From: Candidatus Caldipriscus sp.
GTDB lineage: Bacteria > Hydrothermota > Hydrothermia > LBFQ01
DNA: 56,137 bases
Reading direction: 5' to 3'
Assembly: GCA_049414445.1 (NCBI GenBank)
Contig: JBMSAP010000091.1
Location: 1-56,137 of the forward strand
The notes beneath the pieces were generated by a model that worked only from the letters and a program-made list of their open reading frames with translations, did no database searches and had not been told where the DNA came from. Position numbers and translations under genes: made by a program. The first letter of the stretch is position 1, and each line of letters starts with the position of its first letter. Of the stretch, positions 1,971 to 55,342 are shown piece after piece.

Positions 1971-3200
1971 ATGTTATTTTTGCTTATTTCTCAGCTTGAT
2001 ACGGTTGATAGGATAGTGGCGGTGGTTGGAAATAGGGCGTTTTGGATGTCCGAGGTGGACGAGATAGCCTTAATATACGGGGGGGCTATGGGGATAACAC
2101 CGGACAAACTCGGGGAGTTTAGGAAAGCGGTCCTTGAGGAACTTGTGAATATGGAGCTTTTATACCTAAAGGTGAGGCAAGATACAACCATAAAGGTTTC
2201 CGATCAAGAAATAAATCAAGCCCTTGATCAGCAAATAAACATTCTTATGGGAAACCTGAAAAAAGAGGAATTTGAGGAAAGGCTTAAGGAAGCCGGGCTT
2301 ACGGTGGATTACCTTAGGGAGTATTATAGGGGTTTTGTGCAGAGAAACCTTTACATCCAAAAGTTTGTTGAGATGAAGATAAGACCGAACATAAAAGTCA
2401 GCGATGAGGAGGTTATGAACTTTTATAAAACTTACAAGGATTCCCTAAAACAGCCGGACGAGTATAAGATCGCGGTTATTTCCTTCATAGTTAAACCATC
2501 GGCGAGCGAGGAACAGGAATATTACCAAAGGGCGAAAAATATACACGAGAGGTTGAAGAAGGGGGAGGATTTCTCAAGGTTGGCAGTGCAGATGTCGGAC
2601 GATAGGGAGAGCGCGCAAAGGGGTGGAAATTTAGGCGTGATACCCAAGAACGCATTACCACCGGATTTCATAAAGGAAATAGAAAAAACATCGGTGGGCG
2701 GGATCACGAAACCCTTAAGGGGACCTCAGGGTTATCATATCTTTAAAGTACTTGGGAAACAGGATGATTCATACCTTTTGGCTCATATATTGGTGAAAGT
2801 TAAACCCTCGCAAAGGGCAAAGAATAATGTTATGGCGCGGGCAAAGAGGGTGGCAAACTTGGCCAAAGCGGGGCAGGACTTCTCAAAGCTTGCTAGGACT
2901 TATTCCGAAGATCCAATAAGTAGGGAGAACGGAGGGGATATAGGTTGGGTGAGTGAAGTGGTTTTGCCCAAGAACCTCGCCGAAATCTTAAGAAACGCCA
3001 AGGTGGGTGATATAGTTGGACCAATCGAATCTCCCGATGGTTTAACGATAAATATTTTCAAGGTCCTTGATAAGAGGGAGGGTAAGGAGCCCACATACGA
3101 AGAAATTAGAAATGTGGTCTTGGGTAGGAAAATAGATGAGCAGTTAAAAAAGCTCGTAGAGGATGCAAAGAAGGAGTTTTATTACAAGATCAACCTATGA
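1971..3200 (+). CDS. surA: SurA-like periplasmic chaperone/peptidylprolyl isomerase with two PpiC domains
   Basis: 'VDRIVAVVG' N-domain; two parvulin repeats (GEDFSRLA..SDD..SAQRGGNLG; GQDFSKLA..YSEDP.S...GGDIG); AGGAGG SD. Confidence 0.88.
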   Translation: MLFLLISQLDTVDRIVAVVGNRAFWMSEVDEIALIYGGAMGITPDKLGEFRKAVLEELVNMELLYLKVRQDTTIKVSDQEINQALDQQINILMGNLKKEEFEERLKEAGLTVDYLREYYRGFVQRNLYIQKFVEMKIRPNIKVSDEEVMNFYKTYKDSLKQPDEYKIAVISFIVKPSASEEQEYYQRAKNIHERLKKGEDFSRLAVQMSDDRESAQRGGNLGVIPKNALPPDFIKEIEKTSVGGITKPLRGPQGYHIFKVLGKQDDSYLLAHILVKVKPSQRAKNNVMARAKRVANLAKAGQDFSKLARTYSEDPISRENGGDIGWVSEVVLPKNLAEILRNAKVGDIVGPIESPDGLTINIFKVLDKREGKEPTYEEIRNVVLGRKIDEQLKKLVEDAKKEFYYKINL

Positions 3201-3800
3201 GGTTTGGGATATTAACCTTTGTAAGGAGGGCCTTATTAAACGGGGATGAATTTTGGGGTTTTAGGGATGGTTGGCAGGGTGTTGTAGTTTAATCCTTTGG
3301 AATACAGGGGCTTTATAAATTCTGCCCTTTCAACCTTGCAAGAAGTTGATGGTTTGGTGGTTATAGGGGGAAAGTGGTGTTCATACCAAAAACCATTGAT
3401 AACGATATATGGGGTACGGAAAGTATAGGTTTTGATAATTACATTCAACTGCTGAATCCCAAAAGAGGGTTTTTGTGGTCCAGGTTATGGGGAGGCATAC
3501 GGGTTGGATAGCCCTGTATTTGGGAATATCGGCGGGGGCGGATGTTATCGTAATACCCGAGTGCCAAATAGCGGAAGTCGTTGAAAACAGGAGGAGGAAG
3601 GGGAGAAAATTTAGTAAGGTATTCGGATCAGAAGGTTCAATAGGTTTGTTGAGGTAGGGTATGTCCTTAGGGGGGAAGCCCGAGCGCGTATGACAGGCTT
3701 ATGGCACATACTATGGGAAATTTTGCTTATGAACTTTTATCAAAAGGTAAATTGGTTATGATGTCTTTGCCTTGGACGTTAGCCTTGAGGAATTCCTAAG
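3197..3800 (+). pseudogene. pfkA: Heavily eroded 6-phosphofructokinase (PfkA family) remnant; end approximate
   Basis: Collinear fragments in shifting frames: MRFGILT (ATG 3197), GLVVIGG, PKTIDNDIWGT..IGFD (~3386), VMGRHTGWIAL...ADVIVIPE (3475-), GYVLRGG/SPSAYDR (~3657-3697); many stops and deletions. Confidence 0.85.
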
Positions 3801-3875
3801 GGTCAAAATATTTTTTGGATAATATGCTCCATTTATCTGAATTTTATTTTTCTTAAATCCCATTAATTTTTTCTT

Positions 3876-4964
3876 ATGTGGATAATCGCCCTACTTCCCA
3901 CCAGAGGTTCGGATTATGCTGTAAAGGTGGATACCGCTTTTTGGATCACGTTTTTCTTATCCCTCATCTTCTTTGTGATAATAAACTTCGCCCTTTTGGT
4001 GTTCATAATCAAGTACAGGAGAAAGAAGGGGGATGAAGAACCCGGAGCACCGATAAGCCACAACACACCCCTTGAGATCGTATAGACACTTATACCCACC
4101 ATCCTTTTGTTCGTGATATTCTGGTTTGGATATAAAGCTTACGCCGAGATAAAATGGCCAAAAGAAAAACCTAAGTACGAGATCAGGATAACCGCGAGGC
4201 AGTGGGGTTGGACCGCGGAATATTCCGATGGGAAGAAGCTTATAACGGGAACAATAAAGGATGATAGATTCATCACCCCCAAGGATTTTCAGCCTATAAT
4301 CTTCGTTCCCGCTGGGGAACCCGTACAGTTGATCCTAACCTCCCAGGATGTTATTCACAGCTTCTACGTACCGAAATTTAGGGTAAAATACGATGCGATC
4401 CCGGGAAGATATACGAAGATTTGGTTTCAGGCTGAAAGACCCGGAGAATACGAGGTTTTTTGCGCAGAATACTGCGGGGCTTGGCACTCAAGGATGCCTG
4501 CTAAGGTTGTAGCCCTTCCCCCCAAGCAATTTGAAAGGTTTATGATGATCCCCGCGGAAAAGTTTAACAATACGTTGGCAAGCATGCCCCTTGATTCCAC
4601 TTACGCGGTTTTAAATCTCTCGGATAAAGAGTTTGAGGAGTGGTCCGGAGCGCAGGAGAAGCTCCTTTTAGTCATGTCTCCCGCGGATAGGGGGAAGGTT
4701 TTATCTCAAAGATTGTGTCAATCCTGTCATTCCTTTGATGGTTCTCCGGGGATAGGTCCGACTTGGAAGGGGTCGTTTGGTCGTACGGTGGAGCTTGCGG
4801 ATGGTAGGAAGGTGGTTGCGGATGAGAACTATATTAGGGAATCTACACTTCAGCCTCAGGCGAAAATTGTTAAGGGCTTTCAGCCCGTTATGCCCTCCTT
4901 CCAGGGGCAATTGACCGAGGAACAAATTTCGGACATAATTGAATTTATAAAGACACTTAAATAA
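3876..4964 (+). pseudogene. ctaC: Cytochrome c oxidase subunit II with fused cytochrome c (caa3 type), interrupted by in-frame TAG at 4083-4085
   Basis: ORFs 3876..4085 and 4107..4964 share a frame; HNTPLEIV*TLIP has TAG at the conserved Trp; CuA motif DVIHSF...CAEYCGAWHSRM; heme c motif CQSCH. Confidence 0.88.
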
Positions 4965-4975
4965 GGAGGTGCAAG

Positions 4976-6548: not shown

Positions 6549-6561
6549 AAGGAGGTAAGAT

Positions 6562-6901
6562 ATGGAACAGGTTCTTGAGAAACAGCATGATGTTGAAGAA
6601 AAACACGCGGGCTTGGAAGGGGCAAAGATGGGGATGTGGCTCTTCCCTTTTACCGAGCTCCTTCTCTTCGGAGGACTATTCGCCGCTTATGCGGTTTTCC
6701 ACACGATTTACTCGAAGGATTTTGAGATCGCCCACCATAATTTAAACAGAACCATAGGTTTTATAAACACCTTGATCCTTATTACAAGCTCTCTCACAAT
6801 GGCGCTTTCGGTTTGGAGCGCCCAAACGAGTAGGAAAGGGCTATTAAACCTCTTCTTGCTTTTAACTATCCTTTTGGGAACGGCCTTTTTAGTGATAAAG
6901 T
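6562..6901 (+). pseudogene. ctaE: Cytochrome c oxidase subunit III, N-terminal half only
   Basis: GMWLF..TE..LFGGLFAAY, NTLILITSS.TM, LG..FL.IK, then homology stops at ~6900; AGGAGG SD. Confidence 0.85.
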
Positions 6902-8756: not shown

Positions 8757-9343
8757 AAAACGGAATGCAAAAGGAGGTATATGAAACTTGAAATTGGGTA
8801 AAGGAAGCTTCCTATTATGCTTATCGGTGAGATGATGGAGATGATGATCAAGATCCAAAGTACCCAAGAGAGCTTTGATTCAATATCGTAGTTTTGGTAT
8901 AAGTTGGGGAATATTCCCTGAAGGATCCTCCAACCATCAAGGGGAGGGAGGGGTATTAGATTAAAAACCGCGAGGTATATGTTTATCCAAACGAAAGTAT
9001 CAAGACCAATGGGATTTACGAAGTTTTGGGCAAAGACGCCAACCGATGCCAGAATTATGTTTGATAAGGGGCCGGCGAGGGCAACCATTGCGGTATTTAG
9101 GGGTGGGTTTTTGAAGTAGAAGGGGTTTACGGGGACGGGTTTTGCCCAACCGAACCCCACAAGGAGGACCATAAGGAAGCCGATGGGGTCGATATGAACG
9201 AGGGGGTTTAGGGATAATCTACCTTCATACTTTGCGGTGCGATCCCCCAACTTATAAGCCATCCAAGCGTGGGCGAATTCGTGGAAGGTTAGGGAAAGGA
9301 TTAAAAAGGGGCTTATGGCCAGTCTTATTATCAGACTTTCCAT
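8753..9343 (-). CDS. Site-2 protease (peptidase M50) family protein
   Basis: HEFAH, GRLSLNPLVHIDP, GWAKPVPVN, AGPLSN, FNLIPLPPLDG. Confidence 0.93.
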   Translation of the reverse strand: MESLIIRLAISPFLILSLTFHEFAHAWMAYKLGDRTAKYEGRLSLNPLVHIDPIGFLMVLLVGFGWAKPVPVNPFYFKNPPLNTAMVALAGPLSNIILASVGVFAQNFVNPIGLDTFVWINIYLAVFNLIPLPPLDGWRILQGIFPNLYQNYDIESKLSWVLWILIIISIISPISIIGSFLYPISSFIYLLLHSVL

Positions 9344-10641
9344 AGAAGTTTGTATATCCTCTGCTCAAGTATTCCCAAAAGGGAATACGTTAGCCAGTAA
9401 AGAACTATGCCCGCGGGGAAGGTCAAAAATAGGAATACAAAGAGGAGGGATATTAAAATGGATATGCGCTTTGATTGGGGATCTACGTTAGGCTGTAAAT
9501 AAACGTTTAGCACGCTCACGCCACCCATAATTATAGGAAGAACATAGTAAGGGTCCCTCGCGCTTAGGTCCTTTATCCAGAATATAAACTCCGCCCCCTT
9601 TAGCTCTATTGAGTTTTGCAGAACCTGGTATAGGGCGAAGAATATTGGAAGCTGTAAGAAGAGGGGGAGGCAACCGGAGAAGGGATTGAAACCCGCCTCC
9701 CTGTAAAGCTTCATGGTTTCCCACTGTAGCCTTTCCGGATCGTTCCTGTAAAGTTTCTGGATCTTTTCCAGCTTGGGCTTTAATTCCTGCATCTTTGCGG
9801 ATGCTTTATACATATTAATTGAAAGGGGAGAGGTTAGGAGTTTTATAAAAAGCGCCAAGAGGATTATCGCAATCCCATAATTCTTCGTCAAACCCTCAAA
9901 AAACGTCAGGACCCAGTATATCGGCCAGGCGAGGAAGGTGGTCCAACCCCCTCCAAGGTCAAAGGCTTTTTCCATATTGGGTTCCATTGAAAGGAGCCTA
10001 TTCTCCGCCGGACCAAAAAATACGAAAAATTCCTTGTCCCCTTTTGGATAGAGCCTTAAAGTTATCCTATCCCCGTCCTTGAAGGATACGACGAACCCCC
10101 TAAAATCCCAAACCGAAACCATATAGTACCTTGACCTTAAGCCTATCCACCTTACGCTATCGGTATAAAACTCTTGGTTGGCGTTTTGATAGTTAAACTT
10201 CTTTAATTTCCCATCAAGGTATTGCACGAAGAGCTCCTTCCTCTCGTGCTTTGGATCCTCCGTTATTGGGAGGGTTATCTGTAAGGGTCTTTCTTCCTTC
10301 AGGGTTATCTTCAGGCGGTAATTACCGAGATTCTCAAGGTTAAATATCTGCGTATCCCTTAAGGGTTTTATAATGTAGCCCGTTACCCTCGCCTTATGCC
10401 TTTTATCGTTTAAGCCGTAAATTGCGCCCGTATTCTCATCTATTAGGTATTCGTATCCGCCGGCTTTAAGGGTTATAAGGGGGGGTTCAGGGGAGGCCTT
10501 TATAACCGTTTCCTCCTTTTTTTCGGTTTGCTGTTTAAAGAGCTCTTCCCTTCTGGGCCTTAGGACAAAATAGTCCCAAAGGAGCAAAAAGGTCATTACG
10601 AAGATAAAATATAGGATTATACCCGTTGTTCTGTTCATCAC
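9331..10641 (-). CDS. yidC: Membrane protein insertase YidC
   Basis: NYGIAIILL...K...PL, KMQELKP, LY...NPFSGCLP...QLPIFFALY, FWIKDLS..DPYYVLP, PAG.VLYW. Confidence 0.95.
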   Translation of the reverse strand: MMNRTTGIILYFIFVMTFLLLWDYFVLRPRREELFKQQTEKKEETVIKASPEPPLITLKAGGYEYLIDENTGAIYGLNDKRHKARVTGYIIKPLRDTQIFNLENLGNYRLKITLKEERPLQITLPITEDPKHERKELFVQYLDGKLKKFNYQNANQEFYTDSVRWIGLRSRYYMVSVWDFRGFVVSFKDGDRITLRLYPKGDKEFFVFFGPAENRLLSMEPNMEKAFDLGGGWTTFLAWPIYWVLTFFEGLTKNYGIAIILLALFIKLLTSPLSINMYKASAKMQELKPKLEKIQKLYRNDPERLQWETMKLYREAGFNPFSGCLPLFLQLPIFFALYQVLQNSIELKGAEFIFWIKDLSARDPYYVLPIIMGGVSVLNVYLQPNVDPQSKRISILISLLFVFLFLTFPAGIVLYWLTYSLLGILEQRIYKLLWKV

Positions 10642-16429: not shown

Positions 16430-17515
16430 TCACCTTATCCTTATTAGGTTTCCCAAGTAAAAACCCAAACCCGTCCTGTGGTTATAAACCAATGCCGGGA
16501 AAAAGTCCCCGATTGACAAAAATATGGGAAATCCGAAACCCAAGGAATACCCAAATTCACCGTCCAAAAAACCGAGATCTAGGAAGGGTGATGTTCCAAG
16601 TCCCCCATCCAAAAACCTTGATAAAAATGGGATCCTATTTAAAAGCAAAAATCTGGGCTCAAGGGAAAATATTACCCTCTCCCTCCCCAATATCCTCTCC
16701 GTTGGTATGTCTCCCCTAAGGGCGTCGTCCGTACCTATGAAGTTCGGCATAAAGTAAAACCTCTCTTCCCCAAAAACCCTTGAATAACCGAAATACGCGG
16801 AAAGTGTAAAATTGCCGAAGGTTTTATAAAATTCACCTTGAAGGTCAAATCTTCTGAGAACAAAATTTCCGAAGTTTTCGGATAATTTCCCCCTAAGGGC
16901 GTACCCCTTCCTCGGGTAGTTTAGCCAATCCCTCTTATCCCTCGTTAAGGTGTATTTGTAAGCGAAAAATTTATCCGCATAGTTATAAGAGTAAAGTCCC
17001 ACGGAGATATCCGTCCTTAGGTTCTCGGCGATGTTTTCGGAAAAATACCCTTCCACCCAATCCCTGTGTATATTCTCCCTATAAATCGAGCTCTTGTAAT
17101 CGTTGCTCCCAATGGAAAAACCGTATGACCTTTTCAGGAACCTGTACCTTGGGGATTGCCAGCCGAACTCCCAACCCTTACGGGCACCCAAGGTGAAATA
17201 AACATAAAGGTTTTCGCCGTATCCCCTGAAGTTGCTGTGATATAAACCCATACCCAAAGTTAGCCCCTCGCTGAAACTATAGTTTATTATCGGGGAAGGC
17301 CAGATGTACCAATACTCCTTCAGCCTTACGAGGAGGGTATCGCCAAGTGTATCAACCTCCACCTTCAAAAATAGCCCGGTTTCCTCCAACCTTCTCTTTA
17401 CGTTTAAGGTATCCACGCACAGGCATTCCCCAAGTTCAAGGATCCTATATATAAACTCCGTTTTTGTTTGCCCGTTTCCAATTACCTTGACGAAAAAGGA
17501 AAGGAGTATTATCAT
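16430..17515 (-). CDS. Omp85/BamA-TamA-like outer membrane protein (one POTRA-like domain plus beta-barrel)
   Basis: GN..TK..FI.R, L..TGLF..V POTRA pattern; NFRG.GE; RD....P.KG; LRG; likely start ATG 17515 (ATGA overlap). Confidence 0.75.
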   Translation of the reverse strand: MIILLSFFVKVIGNGQTKTEFIYRILELGECLCVDTLNVKRRLEETGLFLKVEVDTLGDTLLVRLKEYWYIWPSPIINYSFSEGLTLGMGLYHSNFRGYGENLYVYFTLGARKGWEFGWQSPRYRFLKRSYGFSIGSNDYKSSIYRENIHRDWVEGYFSENIAENLRTDISVGLYSYNYADKFFAYKYTLTRDKRDWLNYPRKGYALRGKLSENFGNFVLRRFDLQGEFYKTFGNFTLSAYFGYSRVFGEERFYFMPNFIGTDDALRGDIPTERILGRERVIFSLEPRFLLLNRIPFLSRFLDGGLGTSPFLDLGFLDGEFGYSLGFGFPIFLSIGDFFPALVYNHRTGLGFYLGNLIRIR

Positions 17516-19160: not shown

Positions 19161-20414
19161 TCACCTCCTTTCTTTTTCAAAGTAATCCATAATACCCATG
19201 GCTATCGCCCTTGCGAGCTTCATCTGGTATTCCTCGCTCGCCAACATTTTTGCCTCCTCGGGATTAGACAAAAACCCGAGCTCTATTAAAACCGAGGGGG
19301 CACTAACCCACCTTAGAACATAAAAGTTCGCCTGCTTTAGCCCCCTATCTTCCGTAAGCTTAAGCTCAAGCGCCCTTTGGTGTATAAAACTCGCAAGCTT
19401 ATAGGACTGTTCTAAGAGAAAGGTCTGTATCATATCGCCCAATATCACACCCAATTCATCCTTGGGGTTAAAATTCCCAAGATCGTACCTTATTGCGGAG
19501 TTTTCCAAAAGTGCCACCGCCCTCTCCTCGGTTGTTCTGCTCTCAGAAAAGAAGTAAGTTTCAAAACCCCTTGCGGATCCCCCTCTATCAAAATTAGTGT
19601 GGATGCTTACGAAGATGCTGGCGGAATTTTTGTTCGCTATCCTAGCCCTGGTTGAAAGGGGCACATATTCGTCCCCCTCCCTCGTTAGGATCACGTTATA
19701 CCCCCGCTCCCTTAGGATTTTTGCCACCTTAAGGGCAACTTGCAAATTTATATCCTTCTCCTTATAACCGTTCGCCACAGCCCCCGGGTCCTTCCCCCCA
19801 TGCCCGGGATCTATAACTATTGTGGGAACCTTGCCCTTTTTCTTCGGAACCCTTAAAGGGAGGATCTTCAACGTTAGCTTACCTTTAATTTCCTCTTTTA
19901 AAATTTTACCCGCTCCGAAACCAAGATGCACCGAAAACCTCGTCTTATCGGAAGTGTGTAAAATATCAACGAAGCTTACAAACCTCCCATCCCCCGCAAC
20001 CTTCCTATACTTCCCGTAAAGCCCATCAACAACAATAACAACGCTATCCTCGTAAGTTTGAACTTCAAATCCACTTCCCCCCTCTATGCTTATAACGTAA
20101 TTCGTATCTTTCCTTCCCATAATAAAACGTTTTATCGTGGGTTTTCCCTTAAAGAGGATTTCCCTTTCGTAATCCCAAAATACCGTAAGCCCCAAGTTAA
20201 AGAGGACGGGCGCAAGCTCTTCCCCCTTAAATTTCACACCGTTTTTCTTGCTTAAAGTTAGGGGAAAGGGAACACCCTTCACAAAAGCCAAACCCGTATC
20301 GGTTACCACCGCGCTATCCTTCCCGTAAATCAACCTACTTTTCCTATATTTAACACCTAATCCCTTTAGATCCTCGATGCTAACCCAAGCGCCCGCCAGA
20401 AGCAGGGAAATCAT
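19161..20414 (-). CDS. N-acetylmuramoyl-L-alanine amidase (Amidase_3, AmiC-like)
   Basis: IDPGHGGKDPGA, EK..NL, TR..D..V.L..R...AN, FVSIH, F.VL, P.VLIELGFLSN. Confidence 0.93.
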   Translation of the reverse strand: MISLLLAGAWVSIEDLKGLGVKYRKSRLIYGKDSAVVTDTGLAFVKGVPFPLTLSKKNGVKFKGEELAPVLFNLGLTVFWDYEREILFKGKPTIKRFIMGRKDTNYVISIEGGSGFEVQTYEDSVVIVVDGLYGKYRKVAGDGRFVSFVDILHTSDKTRFSVHLGFGAGKILKEEIKGKLTLKILPLRVPKKKGKVPTIVIDPGHGGKDPGAVANGYKEKDINLQVALKVAKILRERGYNVILTREGDEYVPLSTRARIANKNSASIFVSIHTNFDRGGSARGFETYFFSESRTTEERAVALLENSAIRYDLGNFNPKDELGVILGDMIQTFLLEQSYKLASFIHQRALELKLTEDRGLKQANFYVLRWVSAPSVLIELGFLSNPEEAKMLASEEYQMKLARAIAMGIMDYFEKERR

Positions 20415-24833: not shown

Positions 24834-25750
24834 GATACCTTTCTGATCCCCTTATCGGATATTATAAAATCCACAAGATCGGGAGGGGTTATATCAAAGG
24901 CGAAATAAAGATAATCCTCCCTTGGGATGTCCTGTCTTTTCTCAATTTCAATTTTGTCGGAGTATGGGTTTTCGTCAAAGGTGGTTGAGGGGGCCGCGAC
25001 GACAAAGGGCACCTTGTAATATCTACACGCGAGGGCTATTGATAATGTCCCTATTTTGTTGAATACGAAGAGGTCCTTAGTTATTCTATCCGCCCCCACT
25101 ATGGCAATATCCACCATCCCCCTCGATATTAAGAATGGGATGTGGTTGTCGGGAACGACCTTGTAAGGGATCCCCTCAAGCCTTAGCTCGTAGGCGGTTA
25201 GCCTCGCACCTTGAAGGTAAGGGGAGGTTTCCCCAACATAAACCTCCTCAATCAAGCCGTTTCTGTGGGCGAGCTTTATTATCCCCAAGGCGGTTCCAAG
25301 CCCCACCGTCGCCAATGATCCAGTATTGCAATAAGTCAAAACCCTCTTTTTCCTATCAAAAAGTAGCAAACCGTACTTAGCTATTTTCTCGTTTATTTCC
25401 CTCTCCCTATTCTCAACTGCCCTCGCGAAGTTATACAGATCTTCCGGCTTTCCCCCATTTTCTATTATTGGCCTTACCTCATCCAAGATCTTATGCAAAT
25501 TTACCCCCGTTGGGCGAGAATTCCTCAAAGCCTCCCATGCTCGCATCAAACTCTCCGGTTCCCTTAAGGAATGTATATATAGGCAGTATGCGGAGAAGAC
25601 CGCAATTATTGGGGCACCCCTTATCGCCATCTCTTTTATTACCCTTGCCCCCTCAAATCCGTTATGAACCCTTATCCAAACCTCCCTTTCCGGCAAAAAC
25701 CTCTGATCAAGGATCTCAAGGTGATCACCAACAAGTTTAAAGGGTTCCAC
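24830..25750 (-). CDS. mtnA: S-methyl-5-thioribose-1-phosphate isomerase
   Basis: LDQR.LP, M.IRGAP.I, RPT.VNL, LT.CNTGSLAT..GTALG, ET.P..QGARLTA.EL, VGADRI, NKIGT, FD.TP. Confidence 0.93.
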   Translation of the reverse strand: MEPFKLVGDHLEILDQRFLPEREVWIRVHNGFEGARVIKEMAIRGAPIIAVFSAYCLYIHSLREPESLMRAWEALRNSRPTGVNLHKILDEVRPIIENGGKPEDLYNFARAVENREREINEKIAKYGLLLFDRKKRVLTYCNTGSLATVGLGTALGIIKLAHRNGLIEEVYVGETSPYLQGARLTAYELRLEGIPYKVVPDNHIPFLISRGMVDIAIVGADRITKDLFVFNKIGTLSIALACRYYKVPFVVAAPSTTFDENPYSDKIEIEKRQDIPREDYLYFAFDITPPDLVDFIISDKGIRKVS

Positions 25751-26094
25751 TAAAATTCCACTTCGCTCAAATAAACCTTACCTTCCGATTCCACCAAAAT
25801 AACCGTCGGAAACGGCCCTATACCCCTTGTCGGAATATGCTCGGGGTCCTCCACTTTATTCAGGTTTATCTCTATCCTATGCTTGCCGGGGTTGTACTTT
25901 AATACTTTCTGCCAATATTCACCATCCTTCCAGAACCTCAAAGTCACCCTTATTTCCTTATCAGACTTGGCATAGAAACTGAAGGACCTGTACTCCGCGG
26001 GTAAAGTTTTATAAGCCTCCCCATCCGCAACAAAATACTTACCCTTTAAGCTTAAGGGTCCATTTGCGGAGATCCACGCCAAAACGAACATCAT
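25750..26094 (-). CDS. Hypothetical protein, probably exported beta-rich domain
   Basis: 114-aa ORF filling an operon gap; GGAGGTGAGG SD; short hydrophobic N-terminus. Confidence 0.65.
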   Translation of the reverse strand: MMFVLAWISANGPLSLKGKYFVADGEAYKTLPAEYRSFSFYAKSDKEIRVTLRFWKDGEYWQKVLKYNPGKHRIEINLNKVEDPEHIPTRGIGPFPTVILVESEGKVYLSEVEF

Positions 26095-26097: not shown

Positions 26098-27420
26098 TCA
26101 CCTCCTTATCACTTTATAAGTTTTATTACCCTCCTTGACGATGTAAATCCCCTTGGGTAATTTTTCGATATCCTCCCCCACAAATTTCCCATCTACCGAG
26201 TATATTTTTTTACCCTTTCCCTCAAAATCCAATTTTTCCGCAAAATTTGTTGATGGTAGGGGAGCGTAGGCAAACCAAATGTGCCAATAGTTCCTTCCCC
26301 CGACTACGATCCTGTTATCCGACCAAGCGACGTATACGAAATTGCTGTCCGCCCAGGCATCTATATAGTGTCCTGGCCAGCAATCGTTCGTGTAATCCAC
26401 CCCTCCTACACCACCGCAACCGCTCCTTTCAACAAAGGGAAAATATGTATCAGAAACCCTTATGGAGGGGGACCACGTTATTCCACCGTCGCTGGAGTAG
26501 GAATAATAAAGTCCCCAGAGTCCGTATCCCGCCCTATTGTCGTACCAGAAGGCATGTAAGCCACCATAAGGATCCGCAGCCAAAGCTGGCATATATTCCG
26601 CTACGGATGATGGGTTTGAGGTGATCCTTATTGGGGAAGACCAGGTTGCCCCTCCATTTGTGGATCTAACGAAGGAAACCTTTAAGTCGCTCAATGATCC
26701 GGACATATATATTATCCCGATGTTGCCCTTTCCCCATGCGACTGGTTGATAACCCACGGGATACGGGTTTGGCGCGATATCCCGCGTCATACAGGCCGCG
26801 TTGGTGGGGGAGGACCAAACCGCCCCATTCGTGCTCCTTGAAACGTAAAGGTATATGCAGGAGCCCGAGGACCTCCACCATATCGCGTAAAACAGGGAAT
26901 CGTCAGCCGTTGCCATTGGGACCCCACCCGTGGAATAGACCGCGGTCCTGTTCCAGGTTGTCCCGTTGTCGTAAGAGTAAGCGGAGTATATTCTTGATGA
27001 TGTGCAGAAATTGGCATATATTATCACCAAAGTATCCCTTCTCAAGGCTATCCAAGGGTGATCCGTTGATGAACAGTTTCCCACGTTTATAACCGGACCC
27101 CAAGTTGTACCGCCATCCGTTGAGCGCATATAGTAGGTATGGTAAAGTCCAAGCCAAACGAGGTGTATATTGTTTCCATTTATCCTAACTACGGGATCAC
27201 AGCATGCGGAGCCCGGATCTCCAAAATGCGCCTCCCAAGTTCGGCCTCCGTCGTGCGTTAGGGAGAAGGCATTCTCTCCCGTGACGTCAAGATCTATCCA
27301 ACCTGTTACCCCTAAGTTGAAAATCACAGCGGTGGATACCTCCGCATGGCTCGTGTTATCAGGGTAATCATCCACCCTTACATTCGTAAACGGATAATCC
27401 GTTAAAAATGCCCAAAGCAT
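26098..27420 (-). CDS. Secreted Asp-box (BNR)/sialidase-fold beta-propeller protein with short T9SS-like C-terminal domain
   Basis: Repeats THDGGRTW, STDGGTTW, SYDNGTTW, STNGAVW, STNGGATW, SSDGGITW; tail IYSVDGK...LPKGIYIVK...KVI. Confidence 0.82.
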   Translation of the reverse strand: MLWAFLTDYPFTNVRVDDYPDNTSHAEVSTAVIFNLGVTGWIDLDVTGENAFSLTHDGGRTWEAHFGDPGSACCDPVVRINGNNIHLVWLGLYHTYYMRSTDGGTTWGPVINVGNCSSTDHPWIALRRDTLVIIYANFCTSSRIYSAYSYDNGTTWNRTAVYSTGGVPMATADDSLFYAIWWRSSGSCIYLYVSRSTNGAVWSSPTNAACMTRDIAPNPYPVGYQPVAWGKGNIGIIYMSGSLSDLKVSFVRSTNGGATWSSPIRITSNPSSVAEYMPALAADPYGGLHAFWYDNRAGYGLWGLYYSYSSDGGITWSPSIRVSDTYFPFVERSGCGGVGGVDYTNDCWPGHYIDAWADSNFVYVAWSDNRIVVGGRNYWHIWFAYAPLPSTNFAEKLDFEGKGKKIYSVDGKFVGEDIEKLPKGIYIVKEGNKTYKVIRR

Positions 27421-27426: not shown

Positions 27427-27452
27427 ATTATATAGATGATCACCCGTATAAT
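27427..27452. promoter_or_regulatory. Back-to-back -10 boxes for the BNR protein (-) and M23 peptidase (+)
   Basis: Perfect TATAAT on each strand (27427-27432 minus; 27447-27452 plus), each 6 nt before its start codon. Confidence 0.72.
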
Positions 27453-29158: not shown

Positions 29159-30982
29159 ATGTTAAGCTTAACCTTATTATCTGCGATCACTTTTGGATTT
29201 AAGGCTTTTGGTGGATATCGCCCAAACGATATATTCGGTCCGGACCCTTACGGTTATAGGGCAATAACCTCCGACGATACATCATCTTTAAGGCCCGTTT
29301 GGAGATGGGTTGATAAATCCTCCGATCCTTCTACGGTTTATCTTATCATGTCCGACGATGATATTAAAGGTCCATTTTCCATAGGCTTCACCTTCCCATA
29401 TTACTGGTACTCCGTTTCAACGTTTTACATACACTCAAACGGGGCCATAAGTTTTCGCCCAAACGGTGGTTTTTGGACACCCCATGGCAATTACATACCA
29501 AACCCTTCCCTACCCAACGACCTAATAGCTGGGCTCGGTGCGGACCTTAATCCAAACTGCGGTGGCAGGATATACTACTGGACAAACGGTGTAGATTCCT
29601 TGGTTGTGACCTTTGATAGCGTTCCAACCTGGAGGCATGGGACGGATTGCGAGGGCGCTCACACTTTCCAGATAATATTAACCGCGGATGGGAATATAAC
29701 CTTCAATTACGGTCCCCAAGTTGGCGGGTACGATTACGGGATAGGGATGGTTAATATATCCATAGGGATAGAATCAGCAATTGGGAACCCGGGTTTAAGC
29801 ATACACGAGGATGGCTCACCCGCATCAACAAATCCAAGAAACAATTTTGCGATAAAGATCTACAGGCCCGATACAACTACATTTAGGATAGCGGATGCTT
29901 CCGCTCACTCAATATTTACGGATAAAACCAACCACGTTTTAAACTCGGGGATCTTTATTGCATACAACAGGGAAACATCCTTTATTCCCGACGTCAGGGT
30001 GGAGAATGTTGGAACGGATACCCTTTACAATACATGGGCCAAGCTCGTGATTAGAAGGAAATTTTCAAGCACCATCGTTTATTCGGATTCCGTTTTGATA
30101 CCCGTAATCCCACCCGGCGCGGTAGTTTCTCAAAACCTAAGAACCATAAACTTCTCAACTTTTGCCAGGGACTTTTACACCGCAATACTAACCGTTAGGA
30201 ATTCCTCGGATGCAAACCCCCTAAACAACACCCAAAACGTGGAAATAAGGCTTTACCATTGGACAAACCCCGACACCCTTTACTGGTTCAACTGGAACAT
30301 CTTAACAACCGGTAATATCCTCTTTACAAGATGGTTGGGTTCCGGAGGGGGATGGGCACAGAGGTTTGACCCAAGGCACTATCCCTTTAGGATAGATTCC
30401 GTTTGGCTTGTGGTTGCGGGTTGCATATCAACAAACCCAGCGTGCACGGGACCATTAAACACCCCAATGTTCATAGCAAGGGATACTAACGGAACGGTGG
30501 GAAGATGGATATATGCGGAAACCCTTGCGGTTTCAAGGGATAGCGCAAAGATATACACCCTAAGGCCCACAAGCCCTATAATAGTAAGCTTTCCCTTCTT
30601 CGTCGGATACATACAGGTTGATAGCCTTGGACCCTTGGTGGGTATGGACACATCAAAGCCTTATTCAAGGCAAACCTTTGAGTCAACGGATGGGATAAAC
30701 TGGGCGCCTTATAGGGAAAGCGAAGCATCCGACTTCGTTTTCGTCGTTTGGGGAAGGTCCTTAGAATCTACGGATATATCCGAAGGGAAGAATCTGCCAT
30801 TTAATCTGAGGATAACAGAAAAGGAGGTAATATTGCCTTACGTTATGAGGGTTAAGATCTACACCCCAGTGGGTAGGCTAATATTTGACGGTTTCGTAGA
30901 TAGGCTATCCTTTGAGAATTACCCGAAGGGGATATACTTCGTAAAGGTGGGGGATAGGATCATAAAGTTCATCAATAAATGA
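29159..30982 (+). CDS. Secreted multi-domain protein (nidogen-like N-region, CARDB/Ig-like module) with T9SS-like C-terminal domain
   Basis: GPDPYGY, DD...GPFSIGFTFPYY, SNG.ISF, TFQIIL..DG.I.F.Y; DANPLNN; tail VKIYTPVGR...PKGIYFVK...KF. Confidence 0.7.
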   Translation: MLSLTLLSAITFGFKAFGGYRPNDIFGPDPYGYRAITSDDTSSLRPVWRWVDKSSDPSTVYLIMSDDDIKGPFSIGFTFPYYWYSVSTFYIHSNGAISFRPNGGFWTPHGNYIPNPSLPNDLIAGLGADLNPNCGGRIYYWTNGVDSLVVTFDSVPTWRHGTDCEGAHTFQIILTADGNITFNYGPQVGGYDYGIGMVNISIGIESAIGNPGLSIHEDGSPASTNPRNNFAIKIYRPDTTTFRIADASAHSIFTDKTNHVLNSGIFIAYNRETSFIPDVRVENVGTDTLYNTWAKLVIRRKFSSTIVYSDSVLIPVIPPGAVVSQNLRTINFSTFARDFYTAILTVRNSSDANPLNNTQNVEIRLYHWTNPDTLYWFNWNILTTGNILFTRWLGSGGGWAQRFDPRHYPFRIDSVWLVVAGCISTNPACTGPLNTPMFIARDTNGTVGRWIYAETLAVSRDSAKIYTLRPTSPIIVSFPFFVGYIQVDSLGPLVGMDTSKPYSRQTFESTDGINWAPYRESEASDFVFVVWGRSLESTDISEGKNLPFNLRITEKEVILPYVMRVKIYTPVGRLIFDGFVDRLSFENYPKGIYFVKVGDRIIKFINK

Positions 30983-38466: not shown

Positions 38467-39303
38467 ATGAGGAAAAGCCTGCTTTTGATCCTTATCCTTT
38501 TCTCCTGCTCAAGGGAGAAGGGGGAAAACAAAAAGGTTTTTGAAGAGGTAAAGGCGGTAAATGTTGAGGTTGTTAAACCAAAGAGTATCTCCAAAGAGAT
38601 CACCGTTTCGGGTACCATAAAGGGATACCCCGATGTTTTGGTGTACCCAGACCTTCCGGGAAGGATCTTGAAGATAAACGTTCAGGATGGGCAGTTTGTA
38701 TCCAAGGGGCAGGTTTTGGCGCTTTTGGATAGATCCTCGCCGGGTTTGGAAGTTCGACCTTTAACCGTTGAGGCACCCACGAGCGGTTACGTTCAAGTCC
38801 TAGTTAGGGACGAGGGTTTCCCAGTTTCCCCTCAAACCTCAATATTCAGAATAGTGGGTAGAAGGGAAATTACGGTGCTCTTTGATGTGCCTGAGATCTT
38901 TGCGGGGAACATAAGGAGGGGCACTAGAATATACGTTGAGGGTAAGCGGGGGGAGGTGATAAGGTTTGCTCCGGCATTAGATCCAAGAACGAGGACGTTA
39001 AAGGTTGAGGGGAAGATAGAGGGGGATTTCTTACCTGGGCAATCAGTCCTTGTTGAAGTCGAGGTTCAAAGGGCGGATTCTACGGTGGTTTTACCCGTGA
39101 GCGCCTTTGTTGAGGATACCACCTTTTACGTCTTTGTCCTTAGGGGGGATAGGGTTAAAAGGGTTCCGGTGAGGATAGGGATAAGGACATCGGAGGGTTA
39201 TCAGGTGGTGGAGGGATTGAAATTTGGGGATACCGTGGTGGTCTTCGGCGCGAATACTTTGAAGGATGGGAGCAAAGTTAAGGTGGTGGGGGGTGTGAGA
39301 TGA
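38467..39303 (+). CDS. RND efflux periplasmic adaptor (MFP) lipoprotein
   Basis: LFSC lipobox; GRI..I.V..G..V.KGQ.L, AP.SG, DP.TRT, PG, GL..GD.VV..G. Confidence 0.9.
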   Translation: MRKSLLLILILFSCSREKGENKKVFEEVKAVNVEVVKPKSISKEITVSGTIKGYPDVLVYPDLPGRILKINVQDGQFVSKGQVLALLDRSSPGLEVRPLTVEAPTSGYVQVLVRDEGFPVSPQTSIFRIVGRREITVLFDVPEIFAGNIRRGTRIYVEGKRGEVIRFAPALDPRTRTLKVEGKIEGDFLPGQSVLVEVEVQRADSTVVLPVSAFVEDTTFYVFVLRGDRVKRVPVRIGIRTSEGYQVVEGLKFGDTVVVFGANTLKDGSKVKVVGGVR

Positions 39304-44200: not shown

Positions 44201-44209
44201 TCTTCAACA

Positions 44210-44983
44210 ATGCTTGCCTTTGCTTATGATGTATTTCTTGGCGATTTTTCCTTGTATTCCCTAAAGTCCCATATTCCAAAGGGAGAGATATACACCTCCG
44301 CCTATAACTTCGTCGCGGGAAGCTTTGGGGGGGAGTTGGGGGGAGAAAGGAGAGGGATTTTGGGAAATTTGAAGTTTTTCTCCTCCGGAAATATGGAGAG
44401 GACGGATGAGGATGGACAAGTTTTGGGAAACTTTTCGTCAAATTTTATAAAACTTTCGGGCGGAAGGGAAGTTAAGGTTGGGAATTTTTACGGGATCCTT
44501 GGCGTAGGGCTTTCTTACGTCTCCCTTGATCAGAAGAACGTGGGGATAGGGGCAAGCTTATTTTCCAGGATATTCACCATCAGGGAATTTAAGGGTTTTA
44601 ACGTTGAGGGTTATCTCCTTTTGGATAACGTTGGGTACGAGCTAAAACCCATAGGATTGAGTAGGGGAATATTACCTTACAAGGTTTCCCTTGGGGGGAA
44701 GGTTTTCGGTGATAAGTCCTCCGCCCTCCTTGAGATCGGTAGATACTATATGGGAAATTACGTTAAGGTGGGGGGTGAGCTTGGGGTAAACATCTTAAAT
44801 TTGGGTTTTTCCTTTGATAGCAGACTTAGAAACTTGAACGGCGGGTACGGGCTTGACTTTTTAAGTGGTCTTTCAATTTTCGGTGGGGTGGAATACAGGA
44901 ACGTAAAATTCGAATATTCTTATACTTTTATGGGGTTGTTTGGTTCAAGGAACATTTTCCAAATTTCTTACAGGCTAAACTAA
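44210..44983 (+). CDS. Outer-membrane beta-barrel, PorV/PorQ-like
   Basis: G..ERTDEDG...G.F, N.G, LP....LG, DYSY-like EYSY...G.FG, alternating beta pattern ending ISYRLN. Confidence 0.6.
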   Translation: MLAFAYDVFLGDFSLYSLKSHIPKGEIYTSAYNFVAGSFGGELGGERRGILGNLKFFSSGNMERTDEDGQVLGNFSSNFIKLSGGREVKVGNFYGILGVGLSYVSLDQKNVGIGASLFSRIFTIREFKGFNVEGYLLLDNVGYELKPIGLSRGILPYKVSLGGKVFGDKSSALLEIGRYYMGNYVKVGGELGVNILNLGFSFDSRLRNLNGGYGLDFLSGLSIFGGVEYRNVKFEYSYTFMGLFGSRNIFQISYRLN

Positions 44984-52455: not shown

Positions 52456-53211
52456 ATGGAATTTTTGGCGTTTTTAAGCGTTTATGACGATGAGGAGAGG
52501 ATGAGGCAGTATGTGGAGATATTGAAAGGGGAGGAAATCAAGGGGAAGACGGTGGTAGAGCTTGGGGCGGGTTTCGGTTATTTTTCCATTTTGGCGGTTG
52601 AGAGGGGGGCGAGGAAGGTATATGCGGTCGAGAGGAATATGGAGATATTTGAGGTTTTGAAGGAAAGGGTAAGGGGTTATAAGAATATCGTTCCTATAAG
52701 AACGGATGCTCTAAAGTTTAAACCGGAGGAGGAAATAGACGTTCTTATACACGACTTTTACGGACCCTTACTTTACGACGAATCCCTGTACATTCTTGAT
52801 CACCTGAAGTTTAAGCCCAAAACCGTTATACCCAACGGTGGAGTCCTCAAGTGTGGGACTGTTAGGTTGGGGGATATAAAGGATCCAACCGTGGACCTTG
52901 GGGTTTTGAGGAGGCTTAAGGGTGTTTTGGTTGCGGATCTGTTTGATTTTTATGGAAAGCCCGAGAGGGAGTTTTTAGTGGCGAAATGGGAGTTTGGTAA
53001 GGGTTTGGAGGTTTTTGAGGTTGAGGTGCCAAGGGATGGGGAGGTTTTGGTTTTTTGGGTGGAGATCCTTCACGAGGGTAAGAAGCTCTGCTCATCATAC
53101 GAGTGCAGGAATTGGCCCCTAGTTTTTACTTACAACGTAGGTGGAAGGTTTTCTCTTTCTTTTAGGTGGAGGGGGGATTACTCTTTGGCTTACTTTAGGT
53201 GGAAAAAATGA
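52456..53211 (+). CDS. Class I SAM-dependent methyltransferase, PRMT-like
   Basis: DEERM..Y, KTVVELGAG.G..SI.A...GARKVYAVE, PE..DV..HDF.G.LL.DE, VIP. Confidence 0.8.
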   Translation: MEFLAFLSVYDDEERMRQYVEILKGEEIKGKTVVELGAGFGYFSILAVERGARKVYAVERNMEIFEVLKERVRGYKNIVPIRTDALKFKPEEEIDVLIHDFYGPLLYDESLYILDHLKFKPKTVIPNGGVLKCGTVRLGDIKDPTVDLGVLRRLKGVLVADLFDFYGKPEREFLVAKWEFGKGLEVFEVEVPRDGEVLVFWVEILHEGKKLCSSYECRNWPLVFTYNVGGRFSLSFRWRGDYSLAYFRWKK

Positions 53212-53894
53212 ACGCTTTAATTTCCTTTGTTTACATGGAGCATTTTGCCTGGGCGAGCTTCACGAAGTTTTCCTATAAATACAGGGATAAGAGCGGTGTA
53301 GCGGATATAGGGGGATTTATAAAACCCTTCAGGTGGGGGGATTATGGGTTGGCAATAGGGGGGGATTTCATAGTTTGGTTTGGGTACGATGTGGGTCCCA
53401 TACAACTTGACCCAATTTACGCGGATTACTTCGTTTGGTTCGGGATCTTTAAGGGAAAATTTTACCTTCTGCTTGAACACCCCTGCATGCACTACATAGA
53501 CAGGCTTGATACCCTACCCCTATACTGGAACTCCCTTAGGCTTATGTACAGGGAGAGGGATTTTGAGGTCTCAACTGCCCTTTACATACACAGCGATAAA
53601 TATCAGTTTCTCTCAAGGGGAACGGACTGGAGCTCGGATATAAAAATATTTAAGAGGTTCCGAGAGAAAATATCAAGGGAAACTTTCCTGACGTTTGAAG
53701 GCTCTACATTTTTCGCCCTAAGCAGGAACCATAAGAGGGCTTACGCGAGCTTTGATATGAGGGGTGGTTTGGAGTTTTATAACGAAAAGGGGGATCTTGG
53801 GATTTTTTTGGGCTTTAGACCTTACGATAGGACGGGGATAATAAGGGATGCGGAGGGGGTACCTTACTTATCCTTGAGGGTGAGGGGGTTTTGA
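53208..53894 (+). CDS. Hypothetical outer-membrane beta-barrel-like protein
   Basis: Aromatic-rich alternating pattern, C-terminal Phe; likely start ATG 53208 (ATGA overlap). Confidence 0.6.
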   Translation: MNALISFVYMEHFAWASFTKFSYKYRDKSGVADIGGFIKPFRWGDYGLAIGGDFIVWFGYDVGPIQLDPIYADYFVWFGIFKGKFYLLLEHPCMHYIDRLDTLPLYWNSLRLMYRERDFEVSTALYIHSDKYQFLSRGTDWSSDIKIFKRFREKISRETFLTFEGSTFFALSRNHKRAYASFDMRGGLEFYNEKGDLGIFLGFRPYDRTGIIRDAEGVPYLSLRVRGF

Positions 53895-53901
53895 GGACAC
53901 G

Positions 53902-53930
53902 TTGAAATTATTGGTGGAATGCCATAAAAT
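53902..53930 (+). promoter_or_regulatory. Sigma70-type promoter for the 53939 gene
   Basis: TTGAAA (53902-53907), 17 nt, TAAAAT (53925-53930), 8 nt, ATG. Confidence 0.7.
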
Positions 53931-53938
53931 TCTGGGTT

Positions 53939-55342
53939 ATGGTTAGCTTTCTCTTAAGCGCTTGCGGTTGCCCGACCTATAAGGTTAATATAAGCAATAG
54001 GCCGGGTGTGGTGGATTACACCTATAACGACGCGAACTATATTTCCACCGAGAGGAGTACAAAGAATATAGCAAGCTGTAAGGGTAAGGTTCATATCGCC
54101 TGGTTCGGTAGGAACTCTTCGGGGCAGACCGCGGTTTTCTATAGGAGAAGTACAAACGGTGGAGTGACATGGGATCCCGCCCTTCAACTTACCCCGTTTG
54201 TGGGAAATCTGGGACTTGAGATGTGGGTTCAGTGCTACGGGGATACGGTGGTCGTCGCGTACGAGAAGGTTGAATCCGACAACAACATCTATTACAGGTA
54301 TTCAACCAACGGAGGAAATACCTGGAGTTCTGAAGCCCTTCTAAGGGGAGGTTCAAACAATCAGGAGGCGCCATCAATATGGATATGGGGAAACAACTTC
54401 CACCTTGCCTGGTCTGATAATACCCCACCCGCCCTTGTACCCGTATATTACGTCTGGTATGGTAGGAGTACGACCTTAGGCTCAAGCTGGGTTTCAAGTG
54501 GGAGGAGGGATCTCTCGGATTCTCCGATAATAGTTGGGGATCCAACGAATCCCAACAGGCTTCACATAATATTTATGATCTTCAACGCCCTCGAGAGAAA
54601 GGCTAGGTATATAAGGAGCACCGATGGGGGATCAACGTGGTCCTCCACCTTTGACCTATCAAATGGAGTTAACGCGGGTGGGAGCGGTTTTTGGGGAAGG
54701 CCAATAGGTTCAATAAGCGCATACGGGAATTATGTACATGCGGTTTTCGTTGATGAAAGATTCGGGAACAAGGAGGTCCTATACAGGAGATCCACGGATG
54801 CGGGGGCAACATGGTCTGCAATAATCAACTTAAGCGGAACACCGGATACATCCTGGAGCCCTTATATATTAACGAATAACGCGGGGGAGGTTAGGGTTTA
54901 TTGGGTGGATAAGAGCGATGGGGATTACGAGGTTCTGTGCAAGATCTCCACGAATAACGGTTCAAGCTGGTCTGCAAACTACAGATTGACAAATAATACC
55001 GCAAAGGACGTTATGGTGAGCTTGGATTACGATCCCACAAATTCCAGGTGGCACATAGTTTGGTCATCAAACGAAGGGGGGAATTGGGAGGTTTATTACA
55101 CATCCGATCCATGTCCCACATCTTCGGACGATGACCTGGGTGTAGCGGAAGGGGAAGAGGTTGGGAGCTTTCGGATAGGGAGGGATGGGATAATATTACA
55201 TAAGGATGCGGAGGTAAGGGTTTTTGATGTCTCGGGAAAACTTTATATCTCGGGGAAGTTTGTAAAGGGGGAAAAGGTTCGGCTTAAGAGGGGGGTCTGG
55301 TTCATCCTGATAGATGGGAAAATTTACAGGGTTATAATATAG
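53939..55342 (+). CDS. Secreted Asp-box (BNR)/sialidase-fold protein with T9SS-like C-terminal domain
   Basis: Repeats STNGGVTW, STNGGNTW, STDGGSTW, STDAGATW, STNNGSSW; tail VRVFDVSGK...LKRGVWFI...RVII. Confidence 0.82.
   Translation: MVSFLLSACGCPTYKVNISNRPGVVDYTYNDANYISTERSTKNIASCKGKVHIAWFGRNSSGQTAVFYRRSTNGGVTWDPALQLTPFVGNLGLEMWVQCYGDTVVVAYEKVESDNNIYYRYSTNGGNTWSSEALLRGGSNNQEAPSIWIWGNNFHLAWSDNTPPALVPVYYVWYGRSTTLGSSWVSSGRRDLSDSPIIVGDPTNPNRLHIIFMIFNALERKARYIRSTDGGSTWSSTFDLSNGVNAGGSGFWGRPIGSISAYGNYVHAVFVDERFGNKEVLYRRSTDAGATWSAIINLSGTPDTSWSPYILTNNAGEVRVYWVDKSDGDYEVLCKISTNNGSSWSANYRLTNNTAKDVMVSLDYDPTNSRWHIVWSSNEGGNWEVYYTSDPCPTSSDDDLGVAEGEEVGSFRIGRDGIILHKDAEVRVFDVSGKLYISGKFVKGEKVRLKRGVWFILIDGKIYRVII

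Follow-up and report, generated by a model that had tools for sequence, protein, structure and literature searches.

Short, uncharged N-termini at surA and elsewhere in the window

The window analyzed in this study, a stretch of 56,137 nucleotides (contig JBMSAP010000091.1 of assembly GCA_049414445.1, Candidatus Caldipriscus sp.), encodes a SurA-type periplasmic chaperone and a number of other proteins that begin with an ultra-short, uncharged and hydrophobic N-terminus; a signal peptide is usually roughly 18–30 residues long, and its classical hydrophobic core spans about 7–15 residues. The original prediction, made from the letters of the window, held that these N-termini are minimal export signals. 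The assembly holding the window (G000; 1.48 Mb, 115 contigs, ~45% G+C, ~89% complete, with the window as contig C91) was compared with those of a congener in the same family f1 (G001) and of a sister genus in f1 (G005). Genes in the window are tightly packed with frequent overlaps, and at the surA locus we find the following features.

1128..1967, + strand: PpiD-like membrane-anchored rotamase (weak Pfam Rotamase_2 match) with a normal N-terminal anchor, MNKYGSLILGLVFLALGIFIG
1959..1967, + strand: AGGAGG ribosome-binding site (1959-1964) fused to the TGA of the upstream gene (1965-1967), 6 nt before the ATG at 1971
1971..3200, + strand: SurA-type periplasmic chaperone (Pfam Rotamase and SurA_N, the latter from residue 12); N-terminus MLFLLIS, then conserved QLDTVDRIVA

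The open frame upstream of the surA ATG amounts to one codon, and the synteny of the PpiD-like gene and surA is maintained in G001. The surA gene in the window is 95% identical to that of Candidatus Caldipriscus sp. T1.2. When N-termini of orthologues were aligned, the pattern was shared by the five f1 SurA loci read, which start with MLFLLIS, MFLSFVM, MLLLLAV, MMLLLLS and MLLILTV, each followed by invariant QLDT[VL]DR. The stop-to-stop frame of SurA is 410–417 amino acids in 12 of 12 genomes of the family, in each of which a stop closes it one codon before the start, and 420–461 amino acids in other families of the class, and SurA in more distant families has an ordinary signal (e.g., MKKYLIPLLIFVTFLHSQ), to the final residues of which the Caldipriscus N-terminus aligns. 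The stop preceding SurA is TGA, TAA or TAG depending on the genome, so that recoding of one stop is no explanation for the short frame; recoding of TGA or any other stop was in fact ruled out, as long conserved genes read normally under translation table 11. Also, we noticed that at 1959-1967 and at 26098-26106 (− strand) the upstream gene ends in AGG AGG TGA, so that its last two Arg codons and stop are at the same time a ribosome-binding site, located 6 nt ahead of the ATG of the gene that follows.

The other examples in the window are as follows.

3876..4964, + strand: CtaC, cytochrome oxidase subunit II, starting MWIIALLPTRGSDY; MWIIALLP is kept in two relatives
16430..17515, − strand: “Omp85-like” protein, a label without Pfam support; the ATG at 17515 gives MIILLSFFVKVIG
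19161..20414, − strand: N-acetylmuramoyl-L-alanine amidase (Pfam Amidase_3, 2.7e-58); N-terminus MISLLLAG
25750..26094, − strand: small protein with no Pfam family; N-terminus MMFVLAWIS, with AGGAGGTGA upstream
26098..27420, − strand: BNR-repeat protein (Pfam BNR_2) matching a profile of the type IX secretion system (T9SS) C-terminal tail; MLWAFLT, then conserved DYPFTNVRVDD
27427..27432, − strand: TATAAT −10 box of a leaderless-type start, 6 nt upstream of the ATG at 27420
29159..30982, + strand: protein matching the T9SS-tail profile; N-terminus MLSLTLLSAITFGFKAFG; TAAAAT at 29146-29151, 7 nt upstream
44210..44983, + strand: “PorV-like” protein, a label without Pfam support; N-terminus MLAFAY; TATAAT at 44196-44201, 8 nt upstream
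53208..53894, + strand: “barrel” protein, a label without Pfam support; N-terminus MNALISFVYMEH
53939..55342, + strand: BNR protein (Pfam BNR_2) with T9SS tail; MVSFLLSAC; TAAAAT at 53925-53930

The amidase starts in an ATGA overlap with the upstream gene, and its orthologue in G001 begins with MILMVLTD. For the “Omp85-like” protein, an alternative TTG at 17533 would yield MPRRARMIILL; since the G001 orthologue, which begins with MITVIFAYYVEVLG (MITVIFAYY), has no upstream start available, the ATG at 17515 is favored. A TAA lies directly upstream of the BNR gene starting at 27420, the G001 counterpart of which reads MFLIILN and then DYPF, and the small protein at 26094 has a G001 orthologue beginning with MFWLIGWIS. 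The “PorV-like” gene is preceded by an in-frame stop four codons upstream, and the G001 orthologue of the “barrel” protein begins with MSLFISFVYMKH, also preceded by a −10 box. All of the ten N-termini listed in the original prediction lack a Lys/Arg (K/R) n-region if ATG starts are used, but the list itself needs correction. The protein at 29159 is not ultra-short: its N-terminus, while having no basic n-region, is uncharged for 14 residues up to Lys15 and runs 18 residues to the likely end at ...KAFG (the G001 orthologue begins with MVGIILSAVQSLSFKAVG). MVSFLLSAC at 53939 is an 8-residue lipobox signal without K/R (MIYYILSAC in G001), and ctaC is broken by an in-frame TAG (4083-4085) in place of the Trp codon in LEIVWTLIP. 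CtaC is intact in G001 and, at least at its start, in the T1.2 relative (L021), and MWIIALLP forms the N-tail of a membrane protein. The starts of the “PorV-like” and “barrel” proteins are supported; the family labels of these two and of the “Omp85-like” protein are not.

The broken ctaC belongs to a run of broken genes at 3200-7465, all of which are intact and in the same order in G001. Remnants of phosphofructokinase occur in several frames at ~3200-3870 (pfk is decayed in the T1.2 relative too), CoxI is split by a frameshift (4976-5665 / 5349-6548), CoxIII has 123 amino acids compared with 212 in G001, and the SCO1-like gene after CoxIII lacks its N-terminus. If the breaks do not stem from the assembly, this population seems to be losing its aerobic oxidase operon.

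For a genome-wide view, we used a home-made gene caller and N-terminus classifier, which gave 1448 genes in G000 and, after removal of 12 contig-edge genes, 1436. Class A has K/R ahead of the hydrophobic run, whereas in class B the N-terminus is uncharged and the run begins at residue 2-3. In 200 kb of E. coli K-12 as a control, 8 of 159 genes were marked, none of which was a true signal peptide. Among the 944 G000 genes whose most-upstream start is ATG, TAnAAT boxes are located 6, 7, 8 and 9 nt upstream of the ATG in 70, 72, 131 and 62 cases, respectively (335 in total), the count at any single spacing of 11–39 nt being 0–10. As judged from the sequence, this peak is a signature of leaderless transcripts and points to very frequent leaderless mRNAs in G000, in about one third of genes, cytoplasmic ones included. 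Leaderless-type architecture was found in 38% of cytoplasmic genes and 50% of class B; because cytoplasmic genes share it, the box fixes the ATG but is not tied to export. With a looser −10 rule, the fraction in other WOR-3 families was 4–12% (G020, G027, G030/G024, G141 and G052) and 27% (G013). Leaderless mRNAs are known from Deinococcus-Thermus and Actinobacteria, and the −10 box 6–9 nt before the ATG in about one third of genes resembles theirs; such architecture settles the start codon while leaving the type of signal unexplained.

RNA was consulted as well. Metatranscriptome contigs of runs X1 and X2 over the BNR gene end at 27410 and 27407 beside adapter, 10–13 nt inside the gene, which hints only weakly at a 5′ end close to its ATG. 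Uncovered stretches in X1 (27411-27536 and 29144-29312) were dismissed as evidence for starts, as contigs cannot show starts. An M23-peptidase gene (ATG 27408, + strand) and the BNR gene (ATG 27420, − strand) would share 13 nt in head-to-head orientation; in three runs, the RNA contigs covering the peptidase gene begin only at 27517-27537, and in a fourth run one contig reads across the site. The true start of the M23 peptidase may lie further downstream than its first ATG.

Might the short N-termini then be an artefact of start-codon assignment, with true starts upstream (via non-canonical codons, read-through or a frameshift) restoring normal signals? The basic MPRRAR available to the “Omp85-like” protein and the errors that our start caller makes in E. 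coli speak for this explanation. In most class-B genes, nonetheless, the in-frame stretch before the ATG is 0–8 codons long and closed by a stop; the stop before SurA varies among genomes, AGGAGG or a −10 box is found at a fixed spacing 6–9 nt upstream, and independent assemblies agree, their orthologues having the same length and greasiness. The artefact is thus largely refuted and, in our judgment, very improbable, and the short uncharged N-termini of the original prediction are real and more widespread than it described.

Association with export and distribution among relatives

The T9SS C-terminal tail marks proteins that cross the inner membrane independently of what their N-terminus looks like. 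TIGR04183 has 40 matches in G000; a profile built from 23 of the 40 found 38 complete proteins in G000, among them three in the window (26098, 29159 and 53939). Their N-termini, together with those of relatives with and without the signal recognition particle (SRP; see below), were classified as follows.

G000: class A 15, class B 14, neither 8, acidic only 1; total 38
G001: class A 0, class B 12, neither 1, acidic only 0; total 13
Family f1 pooled (G000, G001, G005): class A 15, class B 27, neither 9, acidic only 1; total 52
SRP-bearing WOR-3 (G141, G052): class A 9, class B 1, neither 2, acidic only 2; total 14

Class B was assigned to 14/38 T9SS-tail proteins versus 157/1392 other proteins in G000 (Fisher p = 5e-5) and to 12/13 versus 35/301 in G001 (Fisher p = 4e-10). 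Several of the eight “neither” proteins in G000 are even shorter stubs, such as MLWAFLT followed by D. The class A proteins in G000 are mostly members of two paralogous families with long classical signals of ~35 amino acids (MKGNLLRT...) and ~20 amino acids (MKRVILTALSI...), encoded on contigs C107, C31, C74, C75 (two genes), C115, C34, C54, C67 and C85; given the location of several on short contigs, these paralogues may be repeated or variable surface proteins.

The short form of class B, with a consensus of Met, 5–8 residues of Leu/Ile/Phe/Val/Trp/Met and a small residue, comprises 135 of the 1436 G000 proteins (9.4%). From the 115 such proteins that have no T9SS tail and are encoded outside the window, 30 were taken at random for a Pfam scan, and 13 were clearly extracytoplasmic: two TonB-type receptors, OmpA/PD40, a subtilase, PBP4, a DegP-like protease, a multihaem cytochrome, two BamD-like TPR proteins, FG-GAP, DUF3108, DUF192 and Tll0287. 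Four more were plausibly extracytoplasmic, 3–4 were membrane proteins, seven had no family, and only 1–2 were cytoplasmic (PurF and perhaps a nuclease), so cytoplasmic proteins do not show the pattern equally often. In the TonB-type receptors of the sample, the first domain begins as early as residue 8–9.

We then compared the position profile of 129 N-termini of this short type with that of 584 proteins without a hydrophobic N-terminus. In the former, positions 2, 4 and 5 are 84–91% hydrophobic, small residues have their maximum of 37–43% at positions 6, 7 and 9, Q/N reach 6–11% at positions 7–9, Pro reaches 8–11% at positions 9–12, and acidic residues exceed basic ones at positions 9–13. Median positions are 9 for the end of the hydrophobic run and 11 for the first charged residue; K/R are absent at positions 2–7 and amount to 2% at position 8, class B by definition having no K/R before the run. 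With no K/R ahead of the hydrophobic run, there is no Tat twin-arginine motif in class B, either. The profile looks like an h-region, a c-region and the beginning of a mature protein in compressed form. A Q-rule was considered as its organizing principle and dropped: [SAG]Q by residue 12 was found in 33 N-termini versus 15 in an internal control, and an earlier count of Q by the end of the hydrophobic run gave 12/135 versus 5% expected.

It could be argued that hydrophobic N-termini are simply common in the proteome by chance or composition, given the 5% of E. coli genes that our crude classifier picks up. The enrichment among T9SS-tail proteins, the family make-up of the random 30 and the control proteins, which are flat in composition at positions 2–16 with 14–24% K/R, refute this explanation.

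Orthologous pairs provide another view. G000 and G001 share 237 reciprocal best pairs, in 24 of which both members are class B; the first 6–9 residues of these diverge yet stay hydrophobic and similar in length, with conservation setting in abruptly thereafter (e.g., MVWFLVIA-PPPEEF versus MLMLLISA-PPPDEI and MMILLIS-QGSVDVQK versus MIILLLA-QGDADVQK). Such turnover under a hydrophobicity constraint beside a conserved mature part is, at the level of sequence, how signal peptides evolve. This also bears on the idea that the stubs are vestiges, namely that streamlining and promoter capture truncated the signals and that the proteins are exported by other means or have changed compartment. The longer SurA signal in related families, the tight gene packing and the leaderless-type starts of about one third of genes are in line with that idea, but a vestige would not remain hydrophobic and equally long throughout genus and family while its residues are exchanged, and TonB-type receptors, PBP4, a DegP-like protease, SurA, the amidase and T9SS cargo cannot work in the cytoplasm. 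We hence regard vestiges as improbable.

Lipoproteins form a contrast class. As the original prediction had noted, they keep K/R and a compact lipobox: there are 47 lipobox candidates in G000, of which 45 have K/R, with Cys at a median position of 14. In the window, MKRALAVLTAFLAC at 30979 and MKRWVLFSFVLLSC at 13853 (− strand) keep K/R, as does the following protein.

38467..39303, + strand: lipoprotein with a compact classical signal, MRKSLLLILILFSC

The frequency of the short class B form differs among relatives; other WOR-3 genomes were sampled for 60–400 kb each.

G000, family f1: 9.4%
G001, f1, same genus: 11.8%
G005, f1, sister genus: 24%
G027, f5, SRP-less: 10.8%
G013, f2, SRP-less: 9.0%
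G020, f4, SRP-less: 7.6%
G030 + G024, f8, SRP-less: 4.4% (3/68)
G141, f23, SRP-bearing: 4.5%
G052, f14, SRP-bearing: 5.6%
E. coli K-12 control: 5.0%

Signal recognition particle and Sec machinery

The original prediction expected an adapted Sec/SRP/signal peptidase machinery. In this respect it was only partly right: SecY, LepB and LspA look conventional, and SRP, judged by similarity searches, is undetectable in the G000 lineage (Ffh, FtsY and SRP RNA) rather than adapted. The Ffh model gave nothing above cut-off in 31 of 31 genomes of the class, G000 included. Neither the SRP54 GTPase domain, which also detects FtsY, nor the M domain was found in five of five genomes searched (G000, G001 and three rated 100% complete); weak SRP54-domain matches in G000 were rejected as Ffh/FtsY, being RadA-like and MeaB/ArgK-like by reading of their sequences. 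A tblastn search of G000 with E. coli Ffh and FtsY as queries returned nothing, and a profile from three WOR-3 Ffh proteins gave E = 0.25 for the best G000 frame, with spiked-in E. coli Ffh and FtsY recovered at 1e-153 and 6e-49, respectively. Neither of two bacterial SRP RNA models matched any of the 31 genomes of the class, whereas the models did detect the RNA in four of five SRP-bearing WOR-3 genomes.

In a survey of the phylum (151 genomes, each at least 85% complete), the Ffh model matched 94 genomes, 81 of them above cut-off and most with a second, FtsY-like match. The 57 genomes without a match are confined to 14 families, and every other family is positive in all sampled members. The SRP-less genomes fall into two groups, both with good support, when SecY is used to build a tree: the class of the window and a second group that includes three families with only one weak Ffh match. 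In these families, f18, f22 and f26 (e.g., G037, G043 and G056), the single match is below cut-off (E 1e-22 to 1e-29), and they may also be without true Ffh, retaining one related GTPase. A single-gene SecY tree cannot fix the number of SRP losses. Loss of SRP appears, from these genome searches, to be natural, old and common to whole clades of free-living thermophiles. In the literature, supplementary files being outside our coverage, we found no report of short or n-less signal peptides or of SRP loss in WOR-3.

The remaining machinery looks ordinary. G000 encodes LspA, Lgt, SecY and a LepB of 224 amino acids, in which the Ser and Lys motifs are the usual ones, and YidC is encoded in the window.

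9331..10641, − strand: YidC membrane insertase, ordinary and with no long basic C-terminal tail (label read from the translation)

secA was not found in the G000 assembly by family search and tblastn. Absence of SecA as a biological trait was ruled out by its presence in 29 of 30 related genomes searched, the same genus included, and secA of G000 is most likely in the missing ~11% of the genome. At 13 E. coli SecY positions taken as pore-ring or prl sites, SecY has the usual residues except for I187A, which is common to SRP-bearing relatives; Gly replaces Val at position 411 in all 29 WOR-3 SecYs. No column of the SecY alignment separates SRP-less from SRP-bearing genomes, and we make no claim from the long G000 SecY branch (0.69), which is unexceptional beside family f3.

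Probable compressed export signals and competing explanations

The minimal export signal of the original prediction is favored by the association with extracytoplasmic families, by hydrophobicity that persists as the letters change, by the sharp border at which the conserved mature part sets in and by the lack of space for a start further upstream. We consider it probable that the short N-termini are true export signals of the Sec type, compressed in a manner specific to this lineage, which has no detectable SRP. The Caldipriscus family would have lost the basic n-region of type I signal peptides, and the hydrophobic core would have shrunk to ~5–8 residues from residue 2, a small residue separating it from the mature protein, ~7–10 residues in total. 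Leaderless-type promoters or strong ribosome-binding sites fix the starts precisely, and the deformylated α-amino group of Met1 would be the only positive charge. The short core rich in Leu/Ile/Phe may engage SecA and the lateral gate of SecYEG, with LepB probably cleaving after the small residue. Since no SRP is detectable in the clade, all targeting must run without it, and SRP-free targeting may have lifted the constraints that keep signal peptides long and basic. The pattern in the sequence, the starts, the link to exported families, the distribution among lineages and the presence or non-detection of machinery genes are observations; Sec dependence, cleavage and a causal link to the loss of SRP are what we infer from them, and no more than one or two evolutionary events underlie the association of short signals with SRP loss.

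Alternatively, the short N-terminus might be an export or membrane tag that forms no cleaved Sec hairpin, being threaded head first, handled by YidC or retained as a greasy anchor; the original prediction, too, allowed for a signal that stays uncleaved. The segment indeed lacks a positive n-region and is not long enough to span the membrane, the acidic residues that follow it would favor an N-out orientation, and absence of SRP makes targeting unusual in any case; furthermore, lipoproteins, which are held N-in for Lgt and Lsp, keep K/R, suggesting that the n-less class is handled differently. We find such a tag less likely, though a serious rival, for small residues peak at positions 6, 7 and 9 with a sharp mature boundary as at a peptidase site, LepB is present and looks normal, and related families have ordinary cleavable signals on the same proteins (e.g., SurA).

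Several points weigh against compressed Sec-type signals. Export and cleavage are predictions from sequence, and a core of 5–8 residues is at or below the shortest h-regions known to work and cannot span the membrane. Classical K/R signals are kept on 45/47 lipoprotein candidates and on 15/38 T9SS-tail proteins in G000, and their persistence means that the machinery does not demand short ones. Loss of SRP and short signals do not correspond one to one, as SRP-less f8 is at background (3/68) and the uncharged signals of SRP-less f4 are for the most part longer. In SecY, the 13 positions reveal no prl-like change, and Q at +1 is enriched only about twofold. The home-made classifier has a background of ~5%, so that true cases are only part of the 135; the RNA support for 5′ ends, a weak hint, rests on assembled contigs. 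Genomes of the clade are, in addition, mostly many-contig assemblies, and relatives are not independent.

Compared with classical Sec/signal peptidase I export, the Caldipriscus signals are likewise N-terminal and hydrophobic, occur on periplasmic, outer-membrane and secreted proteins in the presence of SecY, LepB and YidC, and have a small residue before the mature part with basic residues depleted just after; they differ in having no basic n-region, a core of 5–8 residues and a total length of ~7–10, and the same proteins have ordinary signals in other WOR-3 families. The prlA (SecY) suppressors of E. coli illustrate that a weak or truncated signal is exportable in principle if the channel opens easily, but Caldipriscus SecY has no prl-like residues at the 13 sites. 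Many signals here and in related families end in [SA] and then Q (e.g., MLFLLIS-Q and LLLAQ-Q), reminiscent of the Q-rule signal peptides that are described as specific to Bacteroidetes (PMC5837995); the enrichment here is, however, weak (33 versus 15).

In the textbook view, SRP is universal, and the apparent loss of Ffh, FtsY and SRP RNA contradicts it. Bacteria are reported to be viable without Ffh if translation or targeting is rebalanced (PMC7844537; bioRxiv 10.1101/2021.01.06.425660; bioRxiv 10.1101/2022.11.21.517368), in work that deals with laboratory SRP-independent E. coli, namely suppressors of complete SRP loss and mRNA-based targeting. WOR-3 shares life without SRP with these strains and differs in that the loss is apparently natural and involves Ffh, FtsY and the RNA together. 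The loss in two clades of one phylum, with sister clades retaining SRP, offers a natural system for SRP-free targeting; a cultured WOR-3 strain exists (PMC12285271) and would be useful if it came from an SRP-less clade.

In conclusion, a fuller statement, to which we lend less than even confidence, is that SRP was lost in whole clades of free-living, double-membraned WOR-3 thermophiles and that one of these lineages, Caldipriscus, uses n-less signals of 7–10 residues to export the majority of its envelope and secreted proteins other than lipoproteins. If true, the lower limit for natural Sec signals would move to about seven uncharged residues, and much of the exported proteome could do without a basic n-region. 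Standard predictors and annotation pipelines would then probably under-call the secretome of this lineage, and engagement of the Sec channel would lie outside the current model, in which a membrane-spanning hairpin carries a positive n-region.

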